Shown piece after piece: positions 1 through 32,031 of a stretch of 64,000 nucleotides of DNA (positions are counted from its first letter, which is position 1; every line of letters begins with the position of its first letter). The stretch comes from a virus (taxonomy: Duplodnaviria > Caudoviricetes). Below the pieces are notes generated by a model that did not search any database, was not told where the DNA came from, and saw nothing but the letters and a program-made list of their open reading frames with translations. The translations under genes were made by a program, and so were the position numbers. The DNA lies in IMG/VR virus record IMGVR_UViG_3300027734_003164, positions 32,001 to 96,000 of that record; one strand, 5' to 3'.

Positions 1-1010
1 GTTTGAGTTGTGGTTTCTTCACCATTAGGTGTATTTCCACCATTACCTTGAGAATTTGAATTTACATTAGTTTGGGTATTATTTGTTGGTGAGGCATTTG
101 TTGTTGTTGTTGTTATTTCTTCACCTTGTCCATTAGTTCCTTGACCATTCTCACCAGACCCATTCCCGTTATTCCCCCCAATATTCCCGCTATTATTAGT
201 GCTCCCATTGTTTTGATTAGTATTATTGTTTTGGTTGTTTATAGACTGGTTAGTCTGTGAATTTCCATTTTCATTTGTTCCACTTTGAGTTGTAGTTCCT
301 CCTGCTTGTGTTGAAGTTTCATTTCCAACATTTGTAGAAGAGGTTCCATTTGTTCCGTTGTTTGAACTTGTTTCATTTGTTCCAGTAGTGGTCGCACTTC
401 CTTCATTATTGTTACTTGTTCCATTTATTTGGTTTTGATTGTTATTGGTTGTGGAGTTATTATTATTTGTTGTTGTAGTATTATTTGTTGTAGTAGTATT
501 ATTTGTTGTAGTATTGTTTGTTATATTATTTCCACTTCCATTTTGGGAATTGTTCCCGTTTTTTTTGTTGTTTTTTTTATCGTTTGCCTTTGAGCTTGAG
601 TTTGATGAATTTGATGCTGCGGTCAATGTTCCACTTAGAAAATCTGTGGCACCATTTGATATATCCATAAGAGCGGATAATGAATTTATTAATCCAACGG
701 TATTCAATGCAACGTCTTGTGCAATGTTAATAGAACCTGCGAGTCCAACAATTTCAGAACATGGTGAACCATCAAATTGTGAAAAAACATTATTAGCCCA
801 AGACTCAAAAGTACCATCGACAAAATCTTGTTGTGTAAAGTTTTCTATAAAACCATAATACCCAACAGTGACAGAGCCATTGATGGGTACTATAATATTT
901 TTAACGTTTCCAGTACAGGGGTCGGTGTATGAATAGTTGTATGTTTGCGCGTTTGAATTGTAGAAATTAAACACAAAAAACAGTACGGATATGAAAATTT
1001 TTATTTTCAC
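1..1010 (-). CDS. Secreted/surface protein with long Asn/Thr/Gly/Gln low-complexity region; 3' end runs off the window
   Basis: Not in the ORF track. A GTG start overlaps the TGA of the upstream gene (GTGA), and the frame is open to base 1. Reads VKIKIFISVLFFVFNFYNSNAQTYNYSYTDPCTG (signal peptide), later NNTTTNN-type tracts. Confidence 0.8.
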   Translation of the reverse strand, partial: MKIKIFISVLFFVFNFYNSNAQTYNYSYTDPCTGNVKNIIVPINGSVTVGYYGFIENFTQQDFVDGTFESWANNVFSQFDGSPCSEIVGLAGSINIAQDVALNTVGLINSLSALMDISNGATDFLSGTLTAASNSSNSSSKANDKKNNKKNGNNSQNGSGNNITNNTTTNNTTTTNNTTTTNNNNSTTNNNQNQINGTSNNNEGSATTTGTNETSSNNGTNGTSSTNVGNETSTQAGGTTTQSGTNENGNSQTNQSINNQNNNTNQNNGSTNNSGNIGGNNGNGSGENGQGTNGQGEEITTTTTNASPTNNTQTNVNSNSQGNGGNTPNGEETTTQ

Positions 1011-1747
1011 CTTGGGAATACGCCTTTCGTAATTAACCGTTTAACCACTCTTGATGATGCGGTTTCTAAAGCTTTTTTTGTGGATATACCTATTGTTGAT
1101 TGGTTAAATTTTACATCGTCTGAAATGTCTCCCAAAATTGATGTTGTTTTAATAGTTACTGCTTCACCTAACCCCGAACCAACAATAACTTGACTTGTTT
1201 CAGCATCTACAAATTTAATTTGAAGACCTAATCTTGTGGTTTGATTTACAGTCTGTTGACCATTTACTTTAACTATCTCATCTTCAGAAACACTAAAATC
1301 GTATACTTCAATATAAACAAAATATTTTGCCAAAACTACATTTCCTTTTACTTCAATTTTGTTAGATGAAACTCCCTTGTCTGATGCTTTGTCTTGTGCA
1401 ATCATTCTTTGTTTTATTTCCTCTTTTTCTTCAGTAAAAATAAATCTATTTGTATACTCCAAATATTCTATAACAATATTTGTTACACCAAGACCAACTC
1501 TTTTATCTTTAAGTTCGGGATATAAAGAATATAATTCTTCATTGATTCCTATTTTTAATAATTGTATCGGTACTTGAATAGTGTCGTTGTATTCAGCAAC
1601 TGAATCAATTGATTGTTTCTTTTCAAAATCCGCAACATATTGTTCTGTCTTTACAGAGCCAATTCCCCCTCCGTTTTGAGGGGGTTGAGCTTGTATTGTT
1701 TTACATCCAATCAATAAAAGTGGTAATATGTAAAGTATTTTTTTCAT
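1007..1747 (-). CDS. CsgG/HfaB-like outer-membrane lipoprotein
   Basis: Lipobox LLIGC. GLGVTNIVIEYL..TNRF and LGLQIKFVDAETSQVIVGSGLGEA match the CsgG-family pattern. Confidence 0.7.
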   Translation of the reverse strand: MKKILYILPLLLIGCKTIQAQPPQNGGGIGSVKTEQYVADFEKKQSIDSVAEYNDTIQVPIQLLKIGINEELYSLYPELKDKRVGLGVTNIVIEYLEYTNRFIFTEEKEEIKQRMIAQDKASDKGVSSNKIEVKGNVVLAKYFVYIEVYDFSVSEDEIVKVNGQQTVNQTTRLGLQIKFVDAETSQVIVGSGLGEAVTIKTTSILGDISDDVKFNQSTIGISTKKALETASSRVVKRLITKGVFPR

Positions 1748-2031
1748 TACCCTTCTACTTCTTCGTCTTCTTCTTTATCATTTTGTTTACCTGACAAATA
1801 TTTGTCAACTGAAGCAATACCAAATGAACCTAATGTAATCCATAAAAATCCATCATAGATAAATTTATTGATTGGCATTTCTTGTCCGTATAACCCTGTG
1901 TAGATGTCCACACCAAGGCAAATTACCATCATGATAAATGCTCCAAAACCAACGATTGATTTTTCGTTGATGTCGTTTTTGTCCATAAACATTCTTACGA
2001 AGAATGATTTTTTTGTTTTCTTTTGTGCCAT
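1747..2031 (-). CDS. Small two-TM membrane protein
   Basis: Two hydrophobic segments and an acidic C-terminus. Confidence 0.6.
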   Translation of the reverse strand: MAQKKTKKSFFVRMFMDKNDINEKSIVGFGAFIMMVICLGVDIYTGLYGQEMPINKFIYDGFLWITLGSFGIASVDKYLSGKQNDKEEDEEVEG

Positions 2032-2051
2032 TTTATTTTATTTGTTGTTTA

Positions 2052-2390
2052 TTACCAAGACTCTTCCTCTTTTTTAGGTTGTGGTTGAGGTTGAGTTGGT
2101 TGTTGAGTTGCAGGTTTTTCGATAATTCTTTCACGAACCACACCCCCACCATTATTGTTCTCAGTTTTTTGTTTATTTTCTTGGTTTTGTTGTACATTTA
2201 TAGTTATAGGCGCTTGACCTCCAGACTGTTCTGTTTTTGTCTCCTCTTTTGGTTCTTCGTCACCTCCACCATATAACATAACACCTAACCATGTTCCACC
2301 ACCAGCAATTACTGTTGATAATGTACCAACAATGGTCTTTTTTAATCCTGACCACGTTCCGTCGTTTGTGTCTTGTGTTTCTTCTGACAT
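2052..2390 (-). CDS. Single-TM protein with Q/P/E-rich tail
   Basis: Hydrophobic segment TIVGTLSTVIAGGGTWLGVMLY followed by a low-complexity tail. Confidence 0.6.
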   Translation of the reverse strand: MSEETQDTNDGTWSGLKKTIVGTLSTVIAGGGTWLGVMLYGGGDEEPKEETKTEQSGGQAPITINVQQNQENKQKTENNNGGGVVRERIIEKPATQQPTQPQPQPKKEEESW

Positions 2391-2412
2391 TTTGTTTTTG
2401 TTTATTTTAGGT

Positions 2413-4317
2413 TTATTGTTTTACAATTTTTGAGACTTTAGTTTCTCCGTTCTCCATAGTTAATGTAACTAAGTAAAGACCTCTTTCTAAACTCCCTAAG
2501 TTTTCAACATAGTTATATTCTCCGTTTGGTAATTGAGTGTCAAAGATTGTAATTAACTTTCTTCCAACAACATCGGTTATTGATAGGTTTGCGTTTGTGG
2601 TTTCTTTAACTTCAAATGATATTGTAACCTCATCAACAACAGGGTTAGGGTTTACTGAAATAGTGTTTCCAATTACTTGACCCATATTACTTTTTAATAC
2701 TTGAAGGATTCCGTTTGTTGGAGTTACTGTTAAATCTTTTGATTGGACATTTCCTGCGAATTTTAAAGAAGTATAAAGAGGACTTTCTTCCCAAAGGTTT
2801 TGTGGTTGTTTTGCTATAAATTGTAATTTAACAACCTCATCACCATTTTTTAATGTTTGTTCTCCGTTTGTTATGTCAAATCCACCCCAATCAACTTGAT
2901 TGTTATTAGGATTAACATATGTAATCCATTCCATCGCATTAGATGTAGAATATATGCCTTTAAATTCTAATAGTTCTGAATTGTATTTTAAACCGAACTG
3001 AAGTGATGACAACTCTTCACCGTTAGTGAAAACCTTAACCGGTAATTCAACCAAGTTTCCTGCTTCAACTGTTATGTGAGGAACATTTACTTCAATTGTT
3101 GATGTTGGAAAATCGTATTCAACTTTTGTGTCGATTACATTATAGATTTGTGATTCCAATCCTGGTATTGGTCCAACCAATACTTCAATAGGAGTTACAC
3201 GAGCCATGTTATAACCCGTACCGTTGGCATCTCCAGGAACCATTACATAATATACTACAGAGTCAGGTTGTCCTGGTAATATATCAAATGTAAAGTTAGT
3301 CACACCGGGGATTGTTGATGTATAGTTGGTGTTAGACCCATTGATAGTTGCAAATTCAGATGTGGTAAAGAATTTAACATCTTTTGTATTGTTAGGCCAT
3401 TGTGTAAATCTACCTGATACTCTACCGAACACACCCCATACGTCAGATATAGTTGTATTATTAGAACCATTCACATCTGCTGTGAAGTAATCAAATCCAG
3501 TCATGGTTCCATTTCCTAAAACCCACTGATTGATTAACTGAGCATCCGTTGAAGATATAATATTACCAACACCCATAGTGTCTCCTTGAATTGCAAGTCT
3601 TACATCCCAATATGTTGTATCTAACGGTACTGATATATTAAAGTCACCGTTTATATCTGTAACATAAGAAGAATGTTGTGTCCAAGTGTTTCCACCGAAT
3701 GGTCTTCTTTGTAATGCTAAATTTAAATATTTAGCCGGTGAACCTGTTACATTTGTAAACGTTCCGTGAAATGCGAAGTTCACAGGAGTAAATACACCAC
3801 CATAGTTATGAACACTTAATGTTGTATCCATACCGTTTTGTTTTGCGGCATATGGTGTAAAAGTTTGTGGTCCTGTCCAAGTTAAGTTAGAGATAGACGC
3901 CAAGTTACTGAATGTTGCCGCTGGAGCATGAACAAAGGTGATAAGAAATCTTTCACCGTTTGGTATTGTATATGTCGCACTTGGCCCTGTATAAACTAAA
4001 GTAATTGTGATATAACCATTTGCAGTATTTGTAATATACTGAAGGTCTAAGTTCGCAGATGGTCCGATTAATGAAACAGTTGCATTTGTAAAAGCAACAT
4101 TATCATAGAATACTCTAAACTGAACTCCCGCAAATTTTGTAAGAGTTGTATTTTGTAAAGTAATCTTCGCATCCGTTGTACCTTGTGCTGTTGTTCCAAC
4201 TTGATACTGTGAAGCAATAATTCCCCACAATCCGTTTGATGGCGCCACTGGTACTTGTGTATAACCAATAAATGGTAAAAATAAAAGTAATAAGGTTAGG
4301 TAATAGATAGTTTTCAT
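2413..4317 (-). CDS. T9SS-secreted protein with two cohesin-like domains, a dockerin-like motif and a Por/T9SS C-terminal sorting domain
   Basis: Signal peptide; cohesin-like FAGVQFRVFYD and VELPVKV..LSSLQFGLKYNSELLEF; dockerin-like ADVNGSNNTTISDV; CTD VNPNPVVDEVTI..GLYLVTL..KVSKIVKQ. Confidence 0.8.
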   Translation of the reverse strand: MKTIYYLTLLLLFLPFIGYTQVPVAPSNGLWGIIASQYQVGTTAQGTTDAKITLQNTTLTKFAGVQFRVFYDNVAFTNATVSLIGPSANLDLQYITNTANGYITITLVYTGPSATYTIPNGERFLITFVHAPAATFSNLASISNLTWTGPQTFTPYAAKQNGMDTTLSVHNYGGVFTPVNFAFHGTFTNVTGSPAKYLNLALQRRPFGGNTWTQHSSYVTDINGDFNISVPLDTTYWDVRLAIQGDTMGVGNIISSTDAQLINQWVLGNGTMTGFDYFTADVNGSNNTTISDVWGVFGRVSGRFTQWPNNTKDVKFFTTSEFATINGSNTNYTSTIPGVTNFTFDILPGQPDSVVYYVMVPGDANGTGYNMARVTPIEVLVGPIPGLESQIYNVIDTKVEYDFPTSTIEVNVPHITVEAGNLVELPVKVFTNGEELSSLQFGLKYNSELLEFKGIYSTSNAMEWITYVNPNNNQVDWGGFDITNGEQTLKNGDEVVKLQFIAKQPQNLWEESPLYTSLKFAGNVQSKDLTVTPTNGILQVLKSNMGQVIGNTISVNPNPVVDEVTISFEVKETTNANLSITDVVGRKLITIFDTQLPNGEYNYVENLGSLERGLYLVTLTMENGETKVSKIVKQ

Positions 4318-4335
4318 TAAAGTATTTTAAAATTT

Positions 4336-4935
4336 TTATTTTATGTCAGAACTTTCAATCAATGTGTAAGTAAAAGAGTTTCCGTGTTTTTCACGAGCCT
4401 TTCTACAAATTTTCATAAATTCTTCAAAGTCCGCACTTCTTTTAAACACTTGACACCCTTCTGACCAATTTTCAACATAAGTTGAGTCAGCACCAGCCTT
4501 GTGAATGTTAATACCAAATAGACCTTCATCTACTTTGTTTTCATCATAACTTAAGTCTTTATTTGCGTCACGATAAACTTTAACATTTTTTGCTTGTTTC
4601 AACGCCTCATACTTACCTTGGTGGAGTCCAATTCCGTGAGAACCTCTGTATTGTCCTTCAACCAATCTTGCAACTCCTTTAACATTATGGTATTCTAAAA
4701 CTCCTTTTTTACCTGGGTCGGTTGTTGCTGGCCACTCATGATATTTCCATGCTCCCGTTTCATCTTTATAACTCATTGTTAGTAAGTCGTCAAATGCATT
4801 TGTAACTTTTTGACCAGTATCAGAATTTCTAATACCAATAATATTGACATCATAACCTTTGTTATTTTTGTCTTCAAAATAAACGTAACCTTTGTTTTTT
4901 AAGGTAGATTCAACCTGTTCTCTTGTGTATTTCAT
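4336..4935 (-). CDS. YkuD/L,D-transpeptidase-like cell-wall enzyme
   Basis: GINIHKAG...WSEGCQVF fits the HxxxxxSxGC motif; start moved to MKYTREQ. Confidence 0.6.
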   Translation of the reverse strand: MKYTREQVESTLKNKGYVYFEDKNNKGYDVNIIGIRNSDTGQKVTNAFDDLLTMSYKDETGAWKYHEWPATTDPGKKGVLEYHNVKGVARLVEGQYRGSHGIGLHQGKYEALKQAKNVKVYRDANKDLSYDENKVDEGLFGINIHKAGADSTYVENWSEGCQVFKRSADFEEFMKICRKAREKHGNSFTYTLIESSDIK

Positions 4936-5045
4936 AATTTTCCTTTTTTTAATAAGTATTTTCAAGTAGGGTATAATTCAATTTTTTTTTGATTTTTTTA
5001 TTTACTTTATTTTTTAAAATAGTATTTATAGGAAAATTAATTATT

Positions 5046-5882
5046 ATGATACTAAAAAATGGGTCAAAAGGAGATGACGTAAAAAAACTCCAAGAAAAAC
5101 TAGGTGTTGAGGCAATTGGAACCTTCGGGCCTAAAACTGAAGCCGCTGTTAAAGCATGGCAAAAAGCAAATGGATTAAAAGATGATGGTATTGTAGGTGA
5201 TGCCACTTGGGCTAAACTATTTGGTAAGTCAGCTCCCGCAGCAACTGTAGTTAAAGAAGATGTGGTTATACCTTCAGGAGGACCGTTAAACATTGAAAAA
5301 TTAAAAGGTCATATCCCTGACGCAGTGTTGGCACAAATACCTGAAACCGCAGCTAAATTCAACATTACAAACAACTTGAGACTTGCACATTTTCTATCAC
5401 AATGTGGTCATGAGTCAGGTGGGTTTAAGGCCGTGAGTGAAAACTTAAATTACTCAGCGGATGGTTTGAAAAAAATCTTTGGTAAGTACTTTCCCGGTAA
5501 TCTTAACGAGTCTTATGCAAAACAACCCGAGAAGATTGCATCTCGTGTTTATGGTAATAGAATGGGTAATGGTGATGAAGCATCAAAAGAAGGTTATAAG
5601 TTTAGAGGTAGAGGATATATCCAATTAACAGGAAAAGCAAACTACACAAAGTTCACTCAATTTATTGGTGAGGACTGTGTTTCAAACCCTGATTTAGTGG
5701 CAACTAAATATCCTTTGGCATCTGCAGCGTTCTTTTTTGATTCAAACAAACTATGGGTAATTTGTGACAAAGGAGCCGATGATGCAACAGTCACATCAGT
5801 AACAAAAAGAGTAAATGGTGGAACATTAGGTTTATCTGACCGAATAAAACACTTTAAAGAATATTACAATTTACTTAAGTAA
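5046..5882 (+). CDS. Endolysin: peptidoglycan-binding domain plus glycoside hydrolase family 19
   Basis: N-terminal LKNGSKGDDVKKLQ..DGIVGDATW (PG_binding_1); LAHFLSQCGHESGG and FRGRGYIQLTGKANY (GH19). Confidence 0.92.
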   Translation: MILKNGSKGDDVKKLQEKLGVEAIGTFGPKTEAAVKAWQKANGLKDDGIVGDATWAKLFGKSAPAATVVKEDVVIPSGGPLNIEKLKGHIPDAVLAQIPETAAKFNITNNLRLAHFLSQCGHESGGFKAVSENLNYSADGLKKIFGKYFPGNLNESYAKQPEKIASRVYGNRMGNGDEASKEGYKFRGRGYIQLTGKANYTKFTQFIGEDCVSNPDLVATKYPLASAAFFFDSNKLWVICDKGADDATVTSVTKRVNGGTLGLSDRIKHFKEYYNLLK

Positions 5883-5887
5883 AACAC

Positions 5888-5916
5888 GAAACCCCTCTTA
5901 ACGGAGGGGTTTTTTA
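5888..5916. terminator. Bidirectional intrinsic terminator between convergent genes
   Basis: aaacccctct-taac-ggaggggttttttt. Confidence 0.8.
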
Positions 5917-6186
5917 TTAGTTATTAATCCAAGTCCAACCTAAAAGTAATTTAGAAAAATAACGGTGAATTATATTTGGTTTTTTTTCAAAAAAAATGTG
6001 AAAACTTTTACCAACTTTGTAATAACCAACTTGTTTTGGATATTTGATTACTGTTTGTGTAACTTCACCTTGTCTCAATATCCAATCATTTATTGAATCT
6101 TGGACTTCAATTTTTTTGTTATCCGTTTTTTGTTTGTTTTTTGTCGGATTAACTGCCCTTTTTATAGTTTTTTTTTCTTGTTCCAT
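5917..6186 (-). CDS. Hypothetical protein
   Basis: ORF within a co-oriented run. Confidence 0.6.
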   Translation of the reverse strand: MEQEKKTIKRAVNPTKNKQKTDNKKIEVQDSINDWILRQGEVTQTVIKYPKQVGYYKVGKSFHIFFEKKPNIIHRYFSKLLLGWTWINN

Positions 6187-6188
6187 TT

Positions 6189-6386
6189 TTATTTTTTATT
6201 TTCATTTTTATAGTCGACCCAACTTATCCAAAACCCAATAGCCACAATTACATTCATACCCACAGATGCAATTAATTCATGAATATCTTTATATACATTC
6301 ATTGTTAAATGAACGTGACCAACAACCCAAAATGGTATTGATAAGTTAGACGAAACCCAAAGTAAAATATATTTCAATAATTTCAT
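6189..6386 (-). CDS. Small membrane protein
   Basis: Two hydrophobic segments. Confidence 0.6.
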   Translation of the reverse strand: MKLLKYILLWVSSNLSIPFWVVGHVHLTMNVYKDIHELIASVGMNVIVAIGFWISWVDYKNENKK

Positions 6387-6418
6387 AAATTATATTTATT
6401 GCTCTGAGTTTTTTATTT

Positions 6419-6652
6419 TTAATTTGCTTTTTCTAATTGGTCTTCGTTAAAGATGTGAAGAAGTCCATATTCATCCATCTCACCAACGACTCTCGTATTA
6501 CCTTCAACTGTTTGGAACACAGATACGATTGTACATGGAAACTTATATCCTTTAACTTTAACTGCTTTATCACCTACTTTGAACTTAGGTTGATTTGACG
6601 GGAAATCTCCGTCTGATAATTGTGGGTCATCCCACGATGTATCTCTATTCAT
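6419..6652 (-). CDS. DfrB/R67-type (type II, SH3-fold) dihydrofolate reductase-like protein, 77 aa
   Basis: FPSN..FKVGDKAVKVKGYKF..IV..T..E..GLLHIF..LEKAN aligns almost gap-free with R67 DHFR as I recall it; lies 130 nt downstream of thyA. Confidence 0.55.
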   Translation of the reverse strand: MNRDTSWDDPQLSDGDFPSNQPKFKVGDKAVKVKGYKFPCTIVSVFQTVEGNTRVVGEMDEYGLLHIFNEDQLEKAN

Positions 6653-6784
6653 AATTTTATTTTTTAAATCTATAACCGATAAACCAAAAATCAATTCTGA
6701 AAAACCAATTACCGTCGTGTTTTCCAAAACCAATTCTAATCATCCGATTATTGTGGTTAAGTTTTATTTTATCAATTTTCATTT

Positions 6785-7864
6785 TTAATTAGAAAGCGGC
6801 ATTTTGATAGTCGGGTGTGATTGGTAATTTTTAAGTGTGAAATCACCAATAACATAAGATTCTATTGATGGTCTTGTTCCTTCATAAGTTGGAAATTGAT
6901 TAATAGTTGGTAACTCAAATGGTTCTCTTGTTAATTGTTCTTTAACTCCATCAATCTGATTTAAATAAATGTGACAATCTCCCATATTTGAAATCAACTC
7001 ATCAGGAACCATATTAACCTCCTTTGCCAATATTGTTAGAAGTAATCCATAAGACGCCAAATTAAATGGCGTTCCAAGTGGTACGTCCTGGCTTCTGCAG
7101 TTATACATTAAAGAGATTGCTCTGGTTGGAATATTAAATTTGTCACATTCTTTATGAACCTCATTATCTAAATCTATACTAACATTACTTTTTATAAAAT
7201 CAAACAGTTCATTTGAATCCAATAAATTAATTTGTTTAGTGTTTTTATAAGTGATTCTTTCACTAGCACTTAACTTTCTTGTATAAACTTGAAATCCATA
7301 ATGACAAGGTGGAAGAACCATTTGGTCCAACTCGCCTACATTCCATGCATTTACCATCAATCGTCTTGAGTCTGGGTTTGTTTTAAGGTCGTTGATTAGA
7401 TTTGTGATTTGGTCTATATTTCCCATTCCATGTTTATCCTCTAAAACTCCAGCGCTCCAACTTCGCCACTGTCTGCCATACACGGGACCTAACTCACCCC
7501 ATTTCTCAGCAAACTCATCATCGGTTTTAATTCTATCAACAAACATTTTTTCATCCAAATGTGGTTCCCAATCTTGAACCTGGTCTGAATAATTTTTATA
7601 AGCATCTCCTGTCCAAATATTGCAATCGTTTTCTAAAAGAAACTTGATGTTGGTATCTCCTCTAAGAAACCAAAGCAATTCAGTTACAATAGTTTTCCAA
7701 GCCATTTTCTTGGTTGTAAGAAGTGGAAATTTACCATCTTTAAATTTGTATCTAATAGACCGTCCAAATACACTTAAAACTTCACCATTACGTGTATTCT
7801 TTTTAATACCATTATCCAAAATGTCTTGAAGTAATGCTAAATATTGTTTATCTAATTCGTTCAT
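6785..7864 (-). CDS. thyA: Thymidylate synthase
   Basis: FPLLTTKK, ELLWFLRG, LGPVYGRQWR, SRRLMVNAWN, LPPCH, RSQDVPLGTPFN, GDCHIY. Confidence 0.97.
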   Translation of the reverse strand: MNELDKQYLALLQDILDNGIKKNTRNGEVLSVFGRSIRYKFKDGKFPLLTTKKMAWKTIVTELLWFLRGDTNIKFLLENDCNIWTGDAYKNYSDQVQDWEPHLDEKMFVDRIKTDDEFAEKWGELGPVYGRQWRSWSAGVLEDKHGMGNIDQITNLINDLKTNPDSRRLMVNAWNVGELDQMVLPPCHYGFQVYTRKLSASERITYKNTKQINLLDSNELFDFIKSNVSIDLDNEVHKECDKFNIPTRAISLMYNCRSQDVPLGTPFNLASYGLLLTILAKEVNMVPDELISNMGDCHIYLNQIDGVKEQLTREPFELPTINQFPTYEGTRPSIESYVIGDFTLKNYQSHPTIKMPLSN

Positions 7865-31749: not shown

Positions 31750-32031
31750 TACATAACTATTCGCTAAATTGAAGGCTTCTGTAATGTCTTGATAATCATC
31801 ATCAGGAGCCAACAATTTAACGTCGCTATAGTTTTCGCCAGATTTATCTAATGTCATGAATATCATTGCAGGAACAAATTCATTTTTTTTTGCACTGACA
31901 AATTCTTCGTACTCGTCGGCATATTCAAAAATATCTCTATCGATAAATGCTACTTCATTATTTTGAAATAATTCTTTCAAATCTGTACAATGTGGACACC
32001 CTTTCATTGTAAATAAAACAATAACTTTCAT
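31741..32031 (-). CDS. Glutaredoxin/thioredoxin-like protein
   Basis: FTMKGCPHC; FVPAMIF. Confidence 0.85.
   Translation of the reverse strand: MKVIVLFTMKGCPHCTDLKELFQNNEVAFIDRDIFEYADEYEEFVSAKKNEFVPAMIFMTLDKSGENYSDVKLLAPDDDYQDITEAFNLANSYVSE

Follow-up and report, generated by a model that had tools for sequence, protein, structure and literature searches.

Why would a large tailed phage devote a compact block of genes to proteins that all appear to be destined for the envelope of its host? This question is raised by a Caudoviricetes genome fragment, positions 32,001 to 96,000 of the IMG/VR virus record IMGVR_UViG_3300027734_003164 (hereafter the window, i.e., the whole stretch of 64,000 nucleotides (nt) that was analysed). 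Its first lines hold a cassette of five open reading frames (ORFs), A, B, X, C and D, all on the minus strand and tightly packed across 3-4317; positions are given in window coordinates, with the letters read on the given strand. A and B are separated by 22 nt and B and X by 20 nt, X and C overlap by 1 nt, and C and D overlap by 4 nt. Reading of the N-termini indicates cleavable signal peptides in A and D (cleaved between A and Q or T and Q), a lipobox (LLIGC) in C, one hydrophobic segment after an acidic head in B and two hydrophobic segments in X. By these signals, all cassette products are marked to leave the cytoplasm through Sec. ORFs, spacing and N-termini thus agree with a preliminary description of the locus as five tightly coupled genes whose products all carry export or membrane signals. 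We read the cassette, together with a lectin-type protein encoded beyond D, as a phage-built display of lectins on the infected cell that would use the Sec and type IX secretion system (T9SS) machineries of the host, a reading that we hold to be evenly poised between right and wrong.

The case for a display begins with protein A, which combines export signals with binding domains. Its signal peptide, read from the sequence, is MKTIYYLTLLLLFLPFIGYT, with cleavage before Q, and its extreme C-terminus is a T9SS type-A sorting domain recovered by both Por_Secre_tail (PF18962; residues 556-632, E 2.1e-10, 41.2 bits against a cut-off of 27) and TIGR04183 (40.9 bits against 23), which bears out the sorting domain named in the preliminary description. 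This combination of a signal peptide with a C-terminal sorting domain is that of the type-A T9SS cargo of Bacteroidota; A differs from such cargo in being phage-encoded, and as no T9SS component genes are seen in the cassette, it must borrow the host machinery. Two cohesin-like domains had also been described in A. The second of these is matched by Pfam Cohesin (PF00963) at residues 408-507 (E 1.7e-8, 35.2 bits against 24.1). The N-terminal one, when scanned alone, gives a sub-threshold Cohesin match (E 0.022, 15.4 bits against 24.1), but 22 of its 31 orthologues match Cohesin at E<=0.1 (best 2.9e-4), and language-model features point to cohesin clusters at 0.94. Comparison of the N-terminal domain with cohesin 2 and with the lectin tails described below using hhalign showed no similarity, and a search of PDB sequences with its profile returned nothing at E<=5. 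Domain 2 is accordingly a solid cohesin assignment and the N-terminal domain a weak but consistent one.

The region between the two cohesin-like domains, module M, links A to the lectin proteins encoded after D. These proteins consist of a signal peptide, a variable head and a constant tail, the head being a C-type lectin, a C-type lectin with an inserted LamG domain, a GEVED domain or an immunoglobulin (Ig)-like Ig_7 domain. M is homologous to their constant C-terminal tail (hhalign 99.8%, E 4.3e-28), a link that is new here. The cassette itself is built from known parts. The lectin protein of the window's own phage population could be read from contig L090, which is 99.986% identical to window positions 1-7227 and extends beyond the left edge, thereby providing the full D gene and the genes downstream of it. 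It is 558 amino acids (aa) long and matches Lectin_C, Laminin_G_3 and Dockerin_1, the last at 22.8 bits against a cut-off of 22.9; one orthologue from a related genome reaches 24 bits. A joint profile of M searched against the PDB recovers the X-module and type II dockerin of CipA (2b59_B) at E 0.0066 and several dockerins at E 0.02-0.1, and a phmmer search pairs the dockerin-like stretch of A with the solved dockerin 4uyp_B at E 0.048. In the M alignment the helix of the first dockerin segment (S..DAQ..N) is kept, with no clear loop. Dockerin_1 searches of three complete relatives have their best matches in ORFs that agree in size and position with the A and lectin orthologues. The dockerin-like motif previously noted in A lies within M, and its own Dockerin_1 score is sub-threshold (see below).

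We predicted the structure of a complex of A (residues 22-550) with the last 200 aa of the lectin protein from the related locus L022, using separate alignments for the two chains. The interface score ipSAE was 0.70, 0.72 and 0.70 in three runs, as against 0.00 for the best of 3 controls; at least 98% of the contacts were common to the three runs, and the pLDDT (predicted local distance difference test) of the partner was 65-68. The mark used for this score is reached by 58 of 80 solved complexes and by 2 of 110 mismatched pairs, a calibration that is rough since custom alignments were used. On the side of A, the predicted interface comprises residues 63-66, 91, 93-95, 104, 106-114, 151, 156-159 and 162-164, and on the side of the lectin tail it comprises the dockerin-like loop and helices (…tDARapLMiLLNN… and …NgDtKiTVSdSYNiYGrISGRF). 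Seven of the 21 invariant positions of the N-terminal domain of A lie within this 26-residue predicted interface (p 0.035). The model, supported by the homology of the tails, thus has the dockerin-like tail of the lectin protein docking on the N-terminal cohesin-like domain of A. The cohesin-dockerin self-pairing proposed in the preliminary description is thereby modified: the controlled complex prediction passes, with the lectin tail as the partner and the N-terminal domain of A as its site. The arithmetic of two sockets and two plugs further suggests that the M module of A itself pairs with cohesin 2.

The closest known parallel to such an assembly is the cellulosome, as exemplified by the Clostridium thermocellum CipA X-module and type II dockerin bound to a cohesin (PDB 2b59). 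Both systems have a cohesin scaffold and variable-headed partners on a dockerin tail, the M profile aligns with both the X-module and the dockerin of 2b59_B, and the predicted interface is made of the dockerin loop and helices. Unlike the cellulosome, the cassette is phage-encoded and belongs to a Bacteroidota host, its heads are lectins or Ig-like domains rather than enzymes, and its anchoring would be via T9SS rather than an S-layer or sortase; moreover, it has one visible canonical calcium loop, and its Dockerin_1 scores fall short of the cut-off in A and only come level with it in the lectin protein. We tentatively propose, as an idea somewhat more apt to fail than to hold, that large Flavobacterium phages build a cellulosome-like plug-and-socket display in which a T9SS-exported scaffoldin bears lectin heads that are swapped like receptor-binding proteins, and which either captures neighbouring host cells for the progeny or hides, on the cell and its debris, the glycan receptor that the phage itself uses. 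Phage-directed remodelling of the host surface would thereby gain a new class.

Several observations weigh against the lectin display. Dockerin_1 (PF00404) matches residues 254-293 of A at 17.4 bits, below its cut-off of 22.9, and a single canonical DVNxDxxIxxSD calcium loop with its helix is visible in the M alignment. The lectin tail used in the complex prediction came from L022, the closest relative with a full locus, and not from the window genome itself, and the success of the prediction may mirror the likeness of the chains to solved cohesin-dockerin complexes and not real binding. The lectin protein has no recognisable T9SS domain that would take it across the outer membrane. Finally, endolysin homologues near most related loci and the presence of X inside the cassette leave room for a role in lysis, which is considered below with proteins B and X.

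To identify related loci, we searched for C in metagenome and IMG/VR collections and obtained 88 loci; the contigs are phage-like, the longest measuring 292 kb. Every locus with sufficient reach shows the arrangement A, B, (X), C, D with a lectin-type protein next, and an A orthologue is found in every locus that extends to its position. This synteny, which the preliminary description had put forward as a check, rules out chance ORFs. Consistently, five related phage genomes of 153-292 kb each have one Por_Secre_tail match, which lies in an A-sized ORF (634-661 aa). The best conserved protein of the cassette is C (66-95% identity across loci). Among 1.84 billion proteins, it has 5,561 near-length homologues, yet these form just 232 clusters at 50% identity; thus, the C family is narrow. 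A single-protein scan with C, of a kind that detects close relatives only, found no close copy in 185,579 bacterial and archaeal species genomes. Of 50,697 phage records, those of Immuto alone were recovered by tblastn of C even at E<=1, and megablast of window positions 1-6000 against the 50,697 records gave no match.

The Immuto myophages, whose host is Flavobacterium sp. LMO8, are the sole cultured relatives. Flavobacterium phage vB_FspM_immuto (MW353175-7, NC_055915), a cultured 160-kb myophage, carries the same cassette as gp13-gp18, with A, B, C and D in the same order; A is 32% identical to that of the window over 92% of the query and C is 70% identical. It differs in that the lectin gene lies upstream rather than downstream, C lacks the lipobox Cys, X is absent, and A is divided into two ORFs (gp14/gp15; L001 8953-10777) that are broken just before cohesin 2. 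The second of these ORFs has a signal peptide of its own, and the T9SS sorting domain is found in the second half only; since each half has a signal peptide, the halves can work as separate chains. In the Immuto record these genes carry no annotation beyond hypothetical, 'cohesin domain-containing' or 'lectin C-type', and our literature search found no functional study of them.

The occurrence of lectin and Ig-like domains in phage fibres, along with the match of a gene at the far end of the window to a virion structural protein, raises the question of whether the cassette proteins could be virion or assembly components (e.g., lectin-bearing fibres) that are never exported. However, virions assemble in the cytoplasm, whereas A, C, D and the lectin proteins have cleavable signal peptides, A has in addition the T9SS domain, and D ends in a predicted membrane barrel. 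Further, the Immuto block is surrounded by replication and nucleotide-metabolism genes. We rejected this explanation on account of the signal peptides and consider it highly improbable. The Sec, lipoprotein or T9SS signals instead favour the view already taken in the preliminary description, namely that these are envelope proteins rather than parts of the virion.

Proteins C and D would supply the outer-membrane side of the lectin display. C itself has no Pfam or NCBIfam match at E<=0.1. Its affinities emerge from its relatives, 13 of 30 of which, when aligned, match Pfam CsgG (PF03783; best 1.9e-17), and from a search of the PDB with its family profile, which recovers Escherichia coli CsgG at E 1.1e-4. 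An AlphaFold2 (AF2) model of C (pLDDT 77) likewise has CsgG as its best match (Z 13.3, root-mean-square deviation (rmsd) 3.5 Å with 177 residues aligned; Foldseek E 1e-7, TM 0.56), with weaker matches to CT253 (Z 10.0, the next family), PelC (9.4), FlgT (9.1), LptE (8.3) and TraT (7.0). The placement of C in the CsgG family is thus supported by transitive Pfam matches, profile and predicted fold. It has the lipobox LLIGC, followed by AQ and cleavage before the next Q; at least 8 orthologous lineages lack the lipobox Cys and keep a cleavage site of the A-Q type instead. In CsgG, two amphipathic hairpins build the 36-strand transmembrane barrel of a nonamer. The equivalent in C of the first transmembrane hairpin of CsgG is comparable in length to that of E. 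coli and acidic (SVSEDEIVKV). The equivalent of the second is short (VTIKTTSILGDISDDVKFNQ), being modelled as one long strand (187-202) with residues 203-217 as coil at lower confidence, and is presumably shorter than that of E. coli CsgG. C thus departs from the curli type VIII channel CsgG, the closest fold to it, in lacking a direct Pfam CsgG match and in that its equivalents of the CsgG membrane hairpins are acidic or apparently shortened. What was earlier called a CsgG-like lipoprotein can be retained as such on the fold, the Pfam matches of its relatives and the lipobox, albeit with no profile match of its own, and any transmembrane pore formed by it is hypothetical. Distant bacterial homologues of C (~30% identity; L093 5001-7546, L095 843-2402) lie beside or are fused to Peptidase_C14 (caspase-like) and PEGA proteins; their neighbourhoods (L089, L093-L098) hold nothing like the phage cassette and are uninformative on its function.

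The part of D that lies in the window comprises a signal peptide, a domain of ~115 aa in which two Cys are invariant, a helix predicted to be long and part of a disordered linker, of which residues 136-336 are 84% N/T/G/S (91% with Q) and 5% hydrophobic. D runs off the window edge and its gene ends beyond it; hence, the left boundary previously drawn for the feature is not its true end. The full protein on L090 has 575 aa. Among orthologues the linker varies from 50 to 380 aa and consists to more than 80% of N/G/S/T/Q, with flanking domains of constant length; it is rich in N/T in some lineages and in S/G in others. In an AF2 model of the orthologue from L009, the C-terminal region (aa 346-554, ~210 aa) forms a 12-strand barrel (pLDDT 65-80), with autotransporter translocators as its best matches: EspP (Z 21.6, rmsd 3.0 Å, 246 residues aligned), NalP (Z 20.7), AIDA-I (Z 18.2), KdgM (Z 16.5) and FapF (Z 16.4). 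The matched ranges begin near residue 70-80, and so probably include the N-terminal helix (aa 84-119 in the model, pLDDT 42-56) along with the barrel. In its 12-strand barrel, D resembles the beta-domains of type Va autotransporters (EspP, NalP, AIDA-I, EstA) and also FapF. It differs from these autotransporters in that it matches no Pfam family, the autotransporter one included, at E<=0.05, in that its helix does not directly precede strand 1 but is separated from it by the linker, and in that the part before the linker is only the ~115-aa domain with its two invariant Cys. What had been described as a low-complexity secreted protein is therefore the N-terminal part of a predicted outer-membrane barrel protein. 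Because the linker varies in length while both end domains keep theirs, D has the look of a protein anchored in the outer membrane with a tether of variable length, and not of a released low-complexity protein.

The likeness of C to CsgG allows for a type VIII-like (curli-like) secretion system, in which a pore formed by C would export unfolded polypeptide (e.g., the N/Q/S/T-rich region of D) to make fibres that catch neighbouring cells, or would open the outer membrane for uptake. There is precedent in that csgG/csgF clusters with an unassigned role have been described in pelagimyophages and the Methylophilales phage Melnitz, and fibre capture or uptake has been suggested for those of the pelagimyophages (PMC7029224, PMC9004378). 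These clusters are comparable to the cassette in that a CsgG-like gene lies beside genes for small exported proteins in a large phage; CsgG is also ahead of the next family among the solved structures that match C, and D does have a long disordered stretch rich in N/Q/S/T/G. However, C has no sequence-level link to the pelagiphage genes in the above tblastn search, and its partners in the cassette are a T9SS scaffold, a barrel protein and lectins. No homologue of CsgA, CsgB, CsgE or CsgF was detected among B, X, D or the downstream products, and the equivalents of the CsgG hairpins in C are acidic (SVSEDE) or short. The linker of D, which has a wide range of lengths and in which inspection by eye reveals no curlin-type repeat (no repeat search was made), would act as a barrel-fixed spacer and not as a released subunit. 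We therefore regard curli-like secretion as distinctly unlikely. A second analogy is offered by PelC and LptE, lipoproteins that each work with a separate outer-membrane barrel, PelB and LptD, respectively. C matches the folds of both, less closely than that of CsgG, and it always co-occurs with the barrel protein D, with which its gene overlaps; in contrast to those systems, no polysaccharide or lipopolysaccharide pathway genes are seen with the cassette.

The two remaining genes, B and X, have, like D, no match in Pfam, NCBIfam or PHROGs. B has conserved motifs, PVIVNVQQNQENKQK, VIRERVIEKP and a C-terminal EE(E/D)(S/P)W, that are common to 60 unique orthologues, and its gene overlaps that of C by 7 nt wherever X is absent, which hints at a possible B-C complex. 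X has holin features without a family match, namely two hydrophobic segments and a charged tail (...KQNDKEEDEEVEG). Of the 83 loci with both B and C, 23 have X between the two and 8 have it elsewhere; in the other 52, the fetched flank contains no X. In four of the 8 (L039, L040, L047 and L048) it is found 0-7 nt upstream of an endolysin homologue, which is then followed by the wall hydrolase. Judged by its features only, X is most likely a holin that has lodged in the cassette in the lineage of the window and not a core part; in the scaffold proposed in the preliminary description, X, which changes place between loci, would have no part.

These two proteins also bring up the alternative of a lysis-associated apparatus, in which B and C as a spanin-like pair, or a CsgG-like ring with the barrel, would disrupt the envelope or time its disruption along with X and two wall hydrolases, the scaffold and lectins being accessory. 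A lysis-timing role has indeed been proposed for the phage CsgGF in Melnitz (PMC9004378). In the window, the cassette comes right after a wall hydrolase gene and is divergent from a GH19 endolysin gene, the holin-like X stands between B and C, genes B and C overlap where X is absent, in the manner common among spanin genes, B has the N-terminal transmembrane segment of a type II inner-membrane partner, and an endolysin homologue is present in most of the 88 related loci (in fetched flanks of up to 8-10 kb per side). Against this, C is a 246-aa folded CsgG-like protein and the best conserved of the block, whereas o-spanins are small and poorly conserved. Its lineages without the lipobox Cys are also at odds with the small outer-membrane lipoprotein expected of a spanin. 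The periplasmic part of B appears to be of low complexity by eye, and X is absent or placed elsewhere in 60 of the 83 loci. Moreover, A, D and the lectin protein strictly co-occur with B and C, which a spanin role leaves unexplained. On balance, we think that a lysis apparatus is unlikely.

Returning to the lectin display, the parts could operate as follows. A would be exported through Sec and then carried across the outer membrane by the host T9SS, as its sorting domain implies. It would serve as a small scaffoldin, with its N-terminal cohesin-like domain taking the dockerin-like tail of the lectin protein, which is in effect a swappable head on a constant tail homologous to the middle module of A. 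B would be an inner-membrane anchor, C a CsgG-family lipoprotein and D a 12-strand barrel like that of autotransporters, borne on a long, disordered tether. We infer, by analogy with CsgG or with PelC-PelB and LptE-LptD, that these three might form the outer-membrane part of the same apparatus. As a speculation, the lectin protein could cross the outer membrane piggy-backed on A. The infected cell or its debris would thereby be coated with glycan-binding heads. Such a coat might mask host-type surface sugars, resulting in receptor masking or superinfection exclusion, or it might hold neighbouring host cells or particles.

Table 1. Features of the cassette and its surroundings (window coordinates, except for the X orthologues, which are given on their own contigs).
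Feature	Position	Strand	Basis
Gene A, T9SS-exported cohesin scaffold protein (predicted), 634 aa	2413..4317	-	ORF, Pfam and NCBIfam matches
A aa 22-175, N-terminal cohesin-like domain	3793..4254	-	sub-threshold Pfam Cohesin, orthologue matches, language-model features
A aa 176-395, module M: beta-sandwich, dockerin-like segment, Ig-like part	3133..3792	-	hhalign to lectin tails
A aa 243-312, dockerin-like segment within module M	3382-3591	-	Dockerin_1 17.4 bits
A aa 396-550, cohesin domain 2	2668..3132	-	Pfam Cohesin PF00963
A aa 556-634, T9SS type-A C-terminal sorting domain	2416..2652	-	PF18962, TIGR04183
Gene B, putative N-in single-pass membrane anchor with disordered periplasmic tail, 112 aa	2052..2390	-	sequence, orthologue motifs
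Gene X, two transmembrane segments, acidic C-terminal tail, holin candidate, 94 aa	1747..2031	-	features, locus placement
Gene C, divergent CsgG/HfaB/LpoB-superfamily protein with lipobox, 246 aa	1007..1747	-	profiles, fold
Gene D, N-terminal 336 aa only, GTG start, open at window edge	3..1010	-	ORF
199-aa cell-wall hydrolase-like protein, 18 nt upstream of A	4336..4935	-	phrog_3000, phrog_33083
Endolysin (PG_binding_1 + GH19), divergent from cassette	4989..5882	+	Pfam; phrog_181 at 1.2e-66
X orthologues by endolysin	L039 12092-12340, L040 8164-8427, L047 12167-12415, L048 12122-12388		placement

Coordinates of the cassette and its neighbours are collected in Table 1. The hydrolase-like protein encoded upstream of A matches phrog_3000 at 1.5e-38 and the endolysin family phrog_33083 at 1.1e-11, and no Pfam family; its orthologues have 196-202 aa, with 199 in most, and its ...GINIH...WSEGCQV... 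stretch may resemble an L,D-transpeptidase-type catalytic motif. Other phage-type genes in the window include those for an SbcC-like nuclease, thymidylate synthase, the endolysin and, at the far end, the virion structural protein. A scan for sigma-70 promoters returned 33 sites against 30 expected and is uninformative, which is what promoters of the Bacteroidota type would lead one to expect. A tyrosine integrase (PF00589) was not found in three complete relatives; this fits, without proving, the virulent lifestyle that the large Flavobacterium-type phages with the cassette probably have. The exact protein sequence of A is found in a protein database on a contig of up to 216 kb, and dozens of variants with 98-100% identity occur across many samples. 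Judging from these variants and the contig, the phage population is probably abundant and microdiverse, and its genome about 200 kb long or longer.

Beyond the lectin gene, the loci diverge. In L007 (11336-11920) the lectin gene is directly followed by a signal-peptide-bearing Endonuclease_NS gene (E 4.6e-21) with orthologues in 33 loci; in the phage population of the window, this position is held by a 270-aa barrel-like protein in its place. The latter is the first of three further genes with which the island of exported proteins goes on past the lectin on L090 (9591-11311): it has a signal peptide, a stretch rich in Pro and a C-terminus that resembles a barrel and ends in KF. The second, three genes after D, encodes a 151-aa exported protein that matches the CsgG-like profile of C (hhalign 88.8%, E 2.5e-6), and the third a 150-aa exported protein with a HESCH motif.

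The cassette is widespread and unstudied: our literature search found no paper on a phage cohesin-dockerin system, on a phage T9SS cargo or on this cassette. If the lectin display holds true, neither a cohesin-dockerin assembly nor a T9SS cargo would, to our knowledge, have been described in a virus before. It would mean that lytic phages of an abundant group of aquatic bacteria devote 6-12 kb of their genome to covering the infected cell with proteins that bind sugars, by way of a host secretion system found in Bacteroidota. It would also offer a concrete and testable approach to the CsgG-like genes of marine phages, for which there is as yet no explanation. Given that the same cassette is present in a cultured pair, Immuto and Flavobacterium sp. 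LMO8, the question is directly testable. By altering how infected cells stick to one another, to particles or to progeny virions, such a display would have consequences for transmission and for the flow of carbon in lakes and seas.

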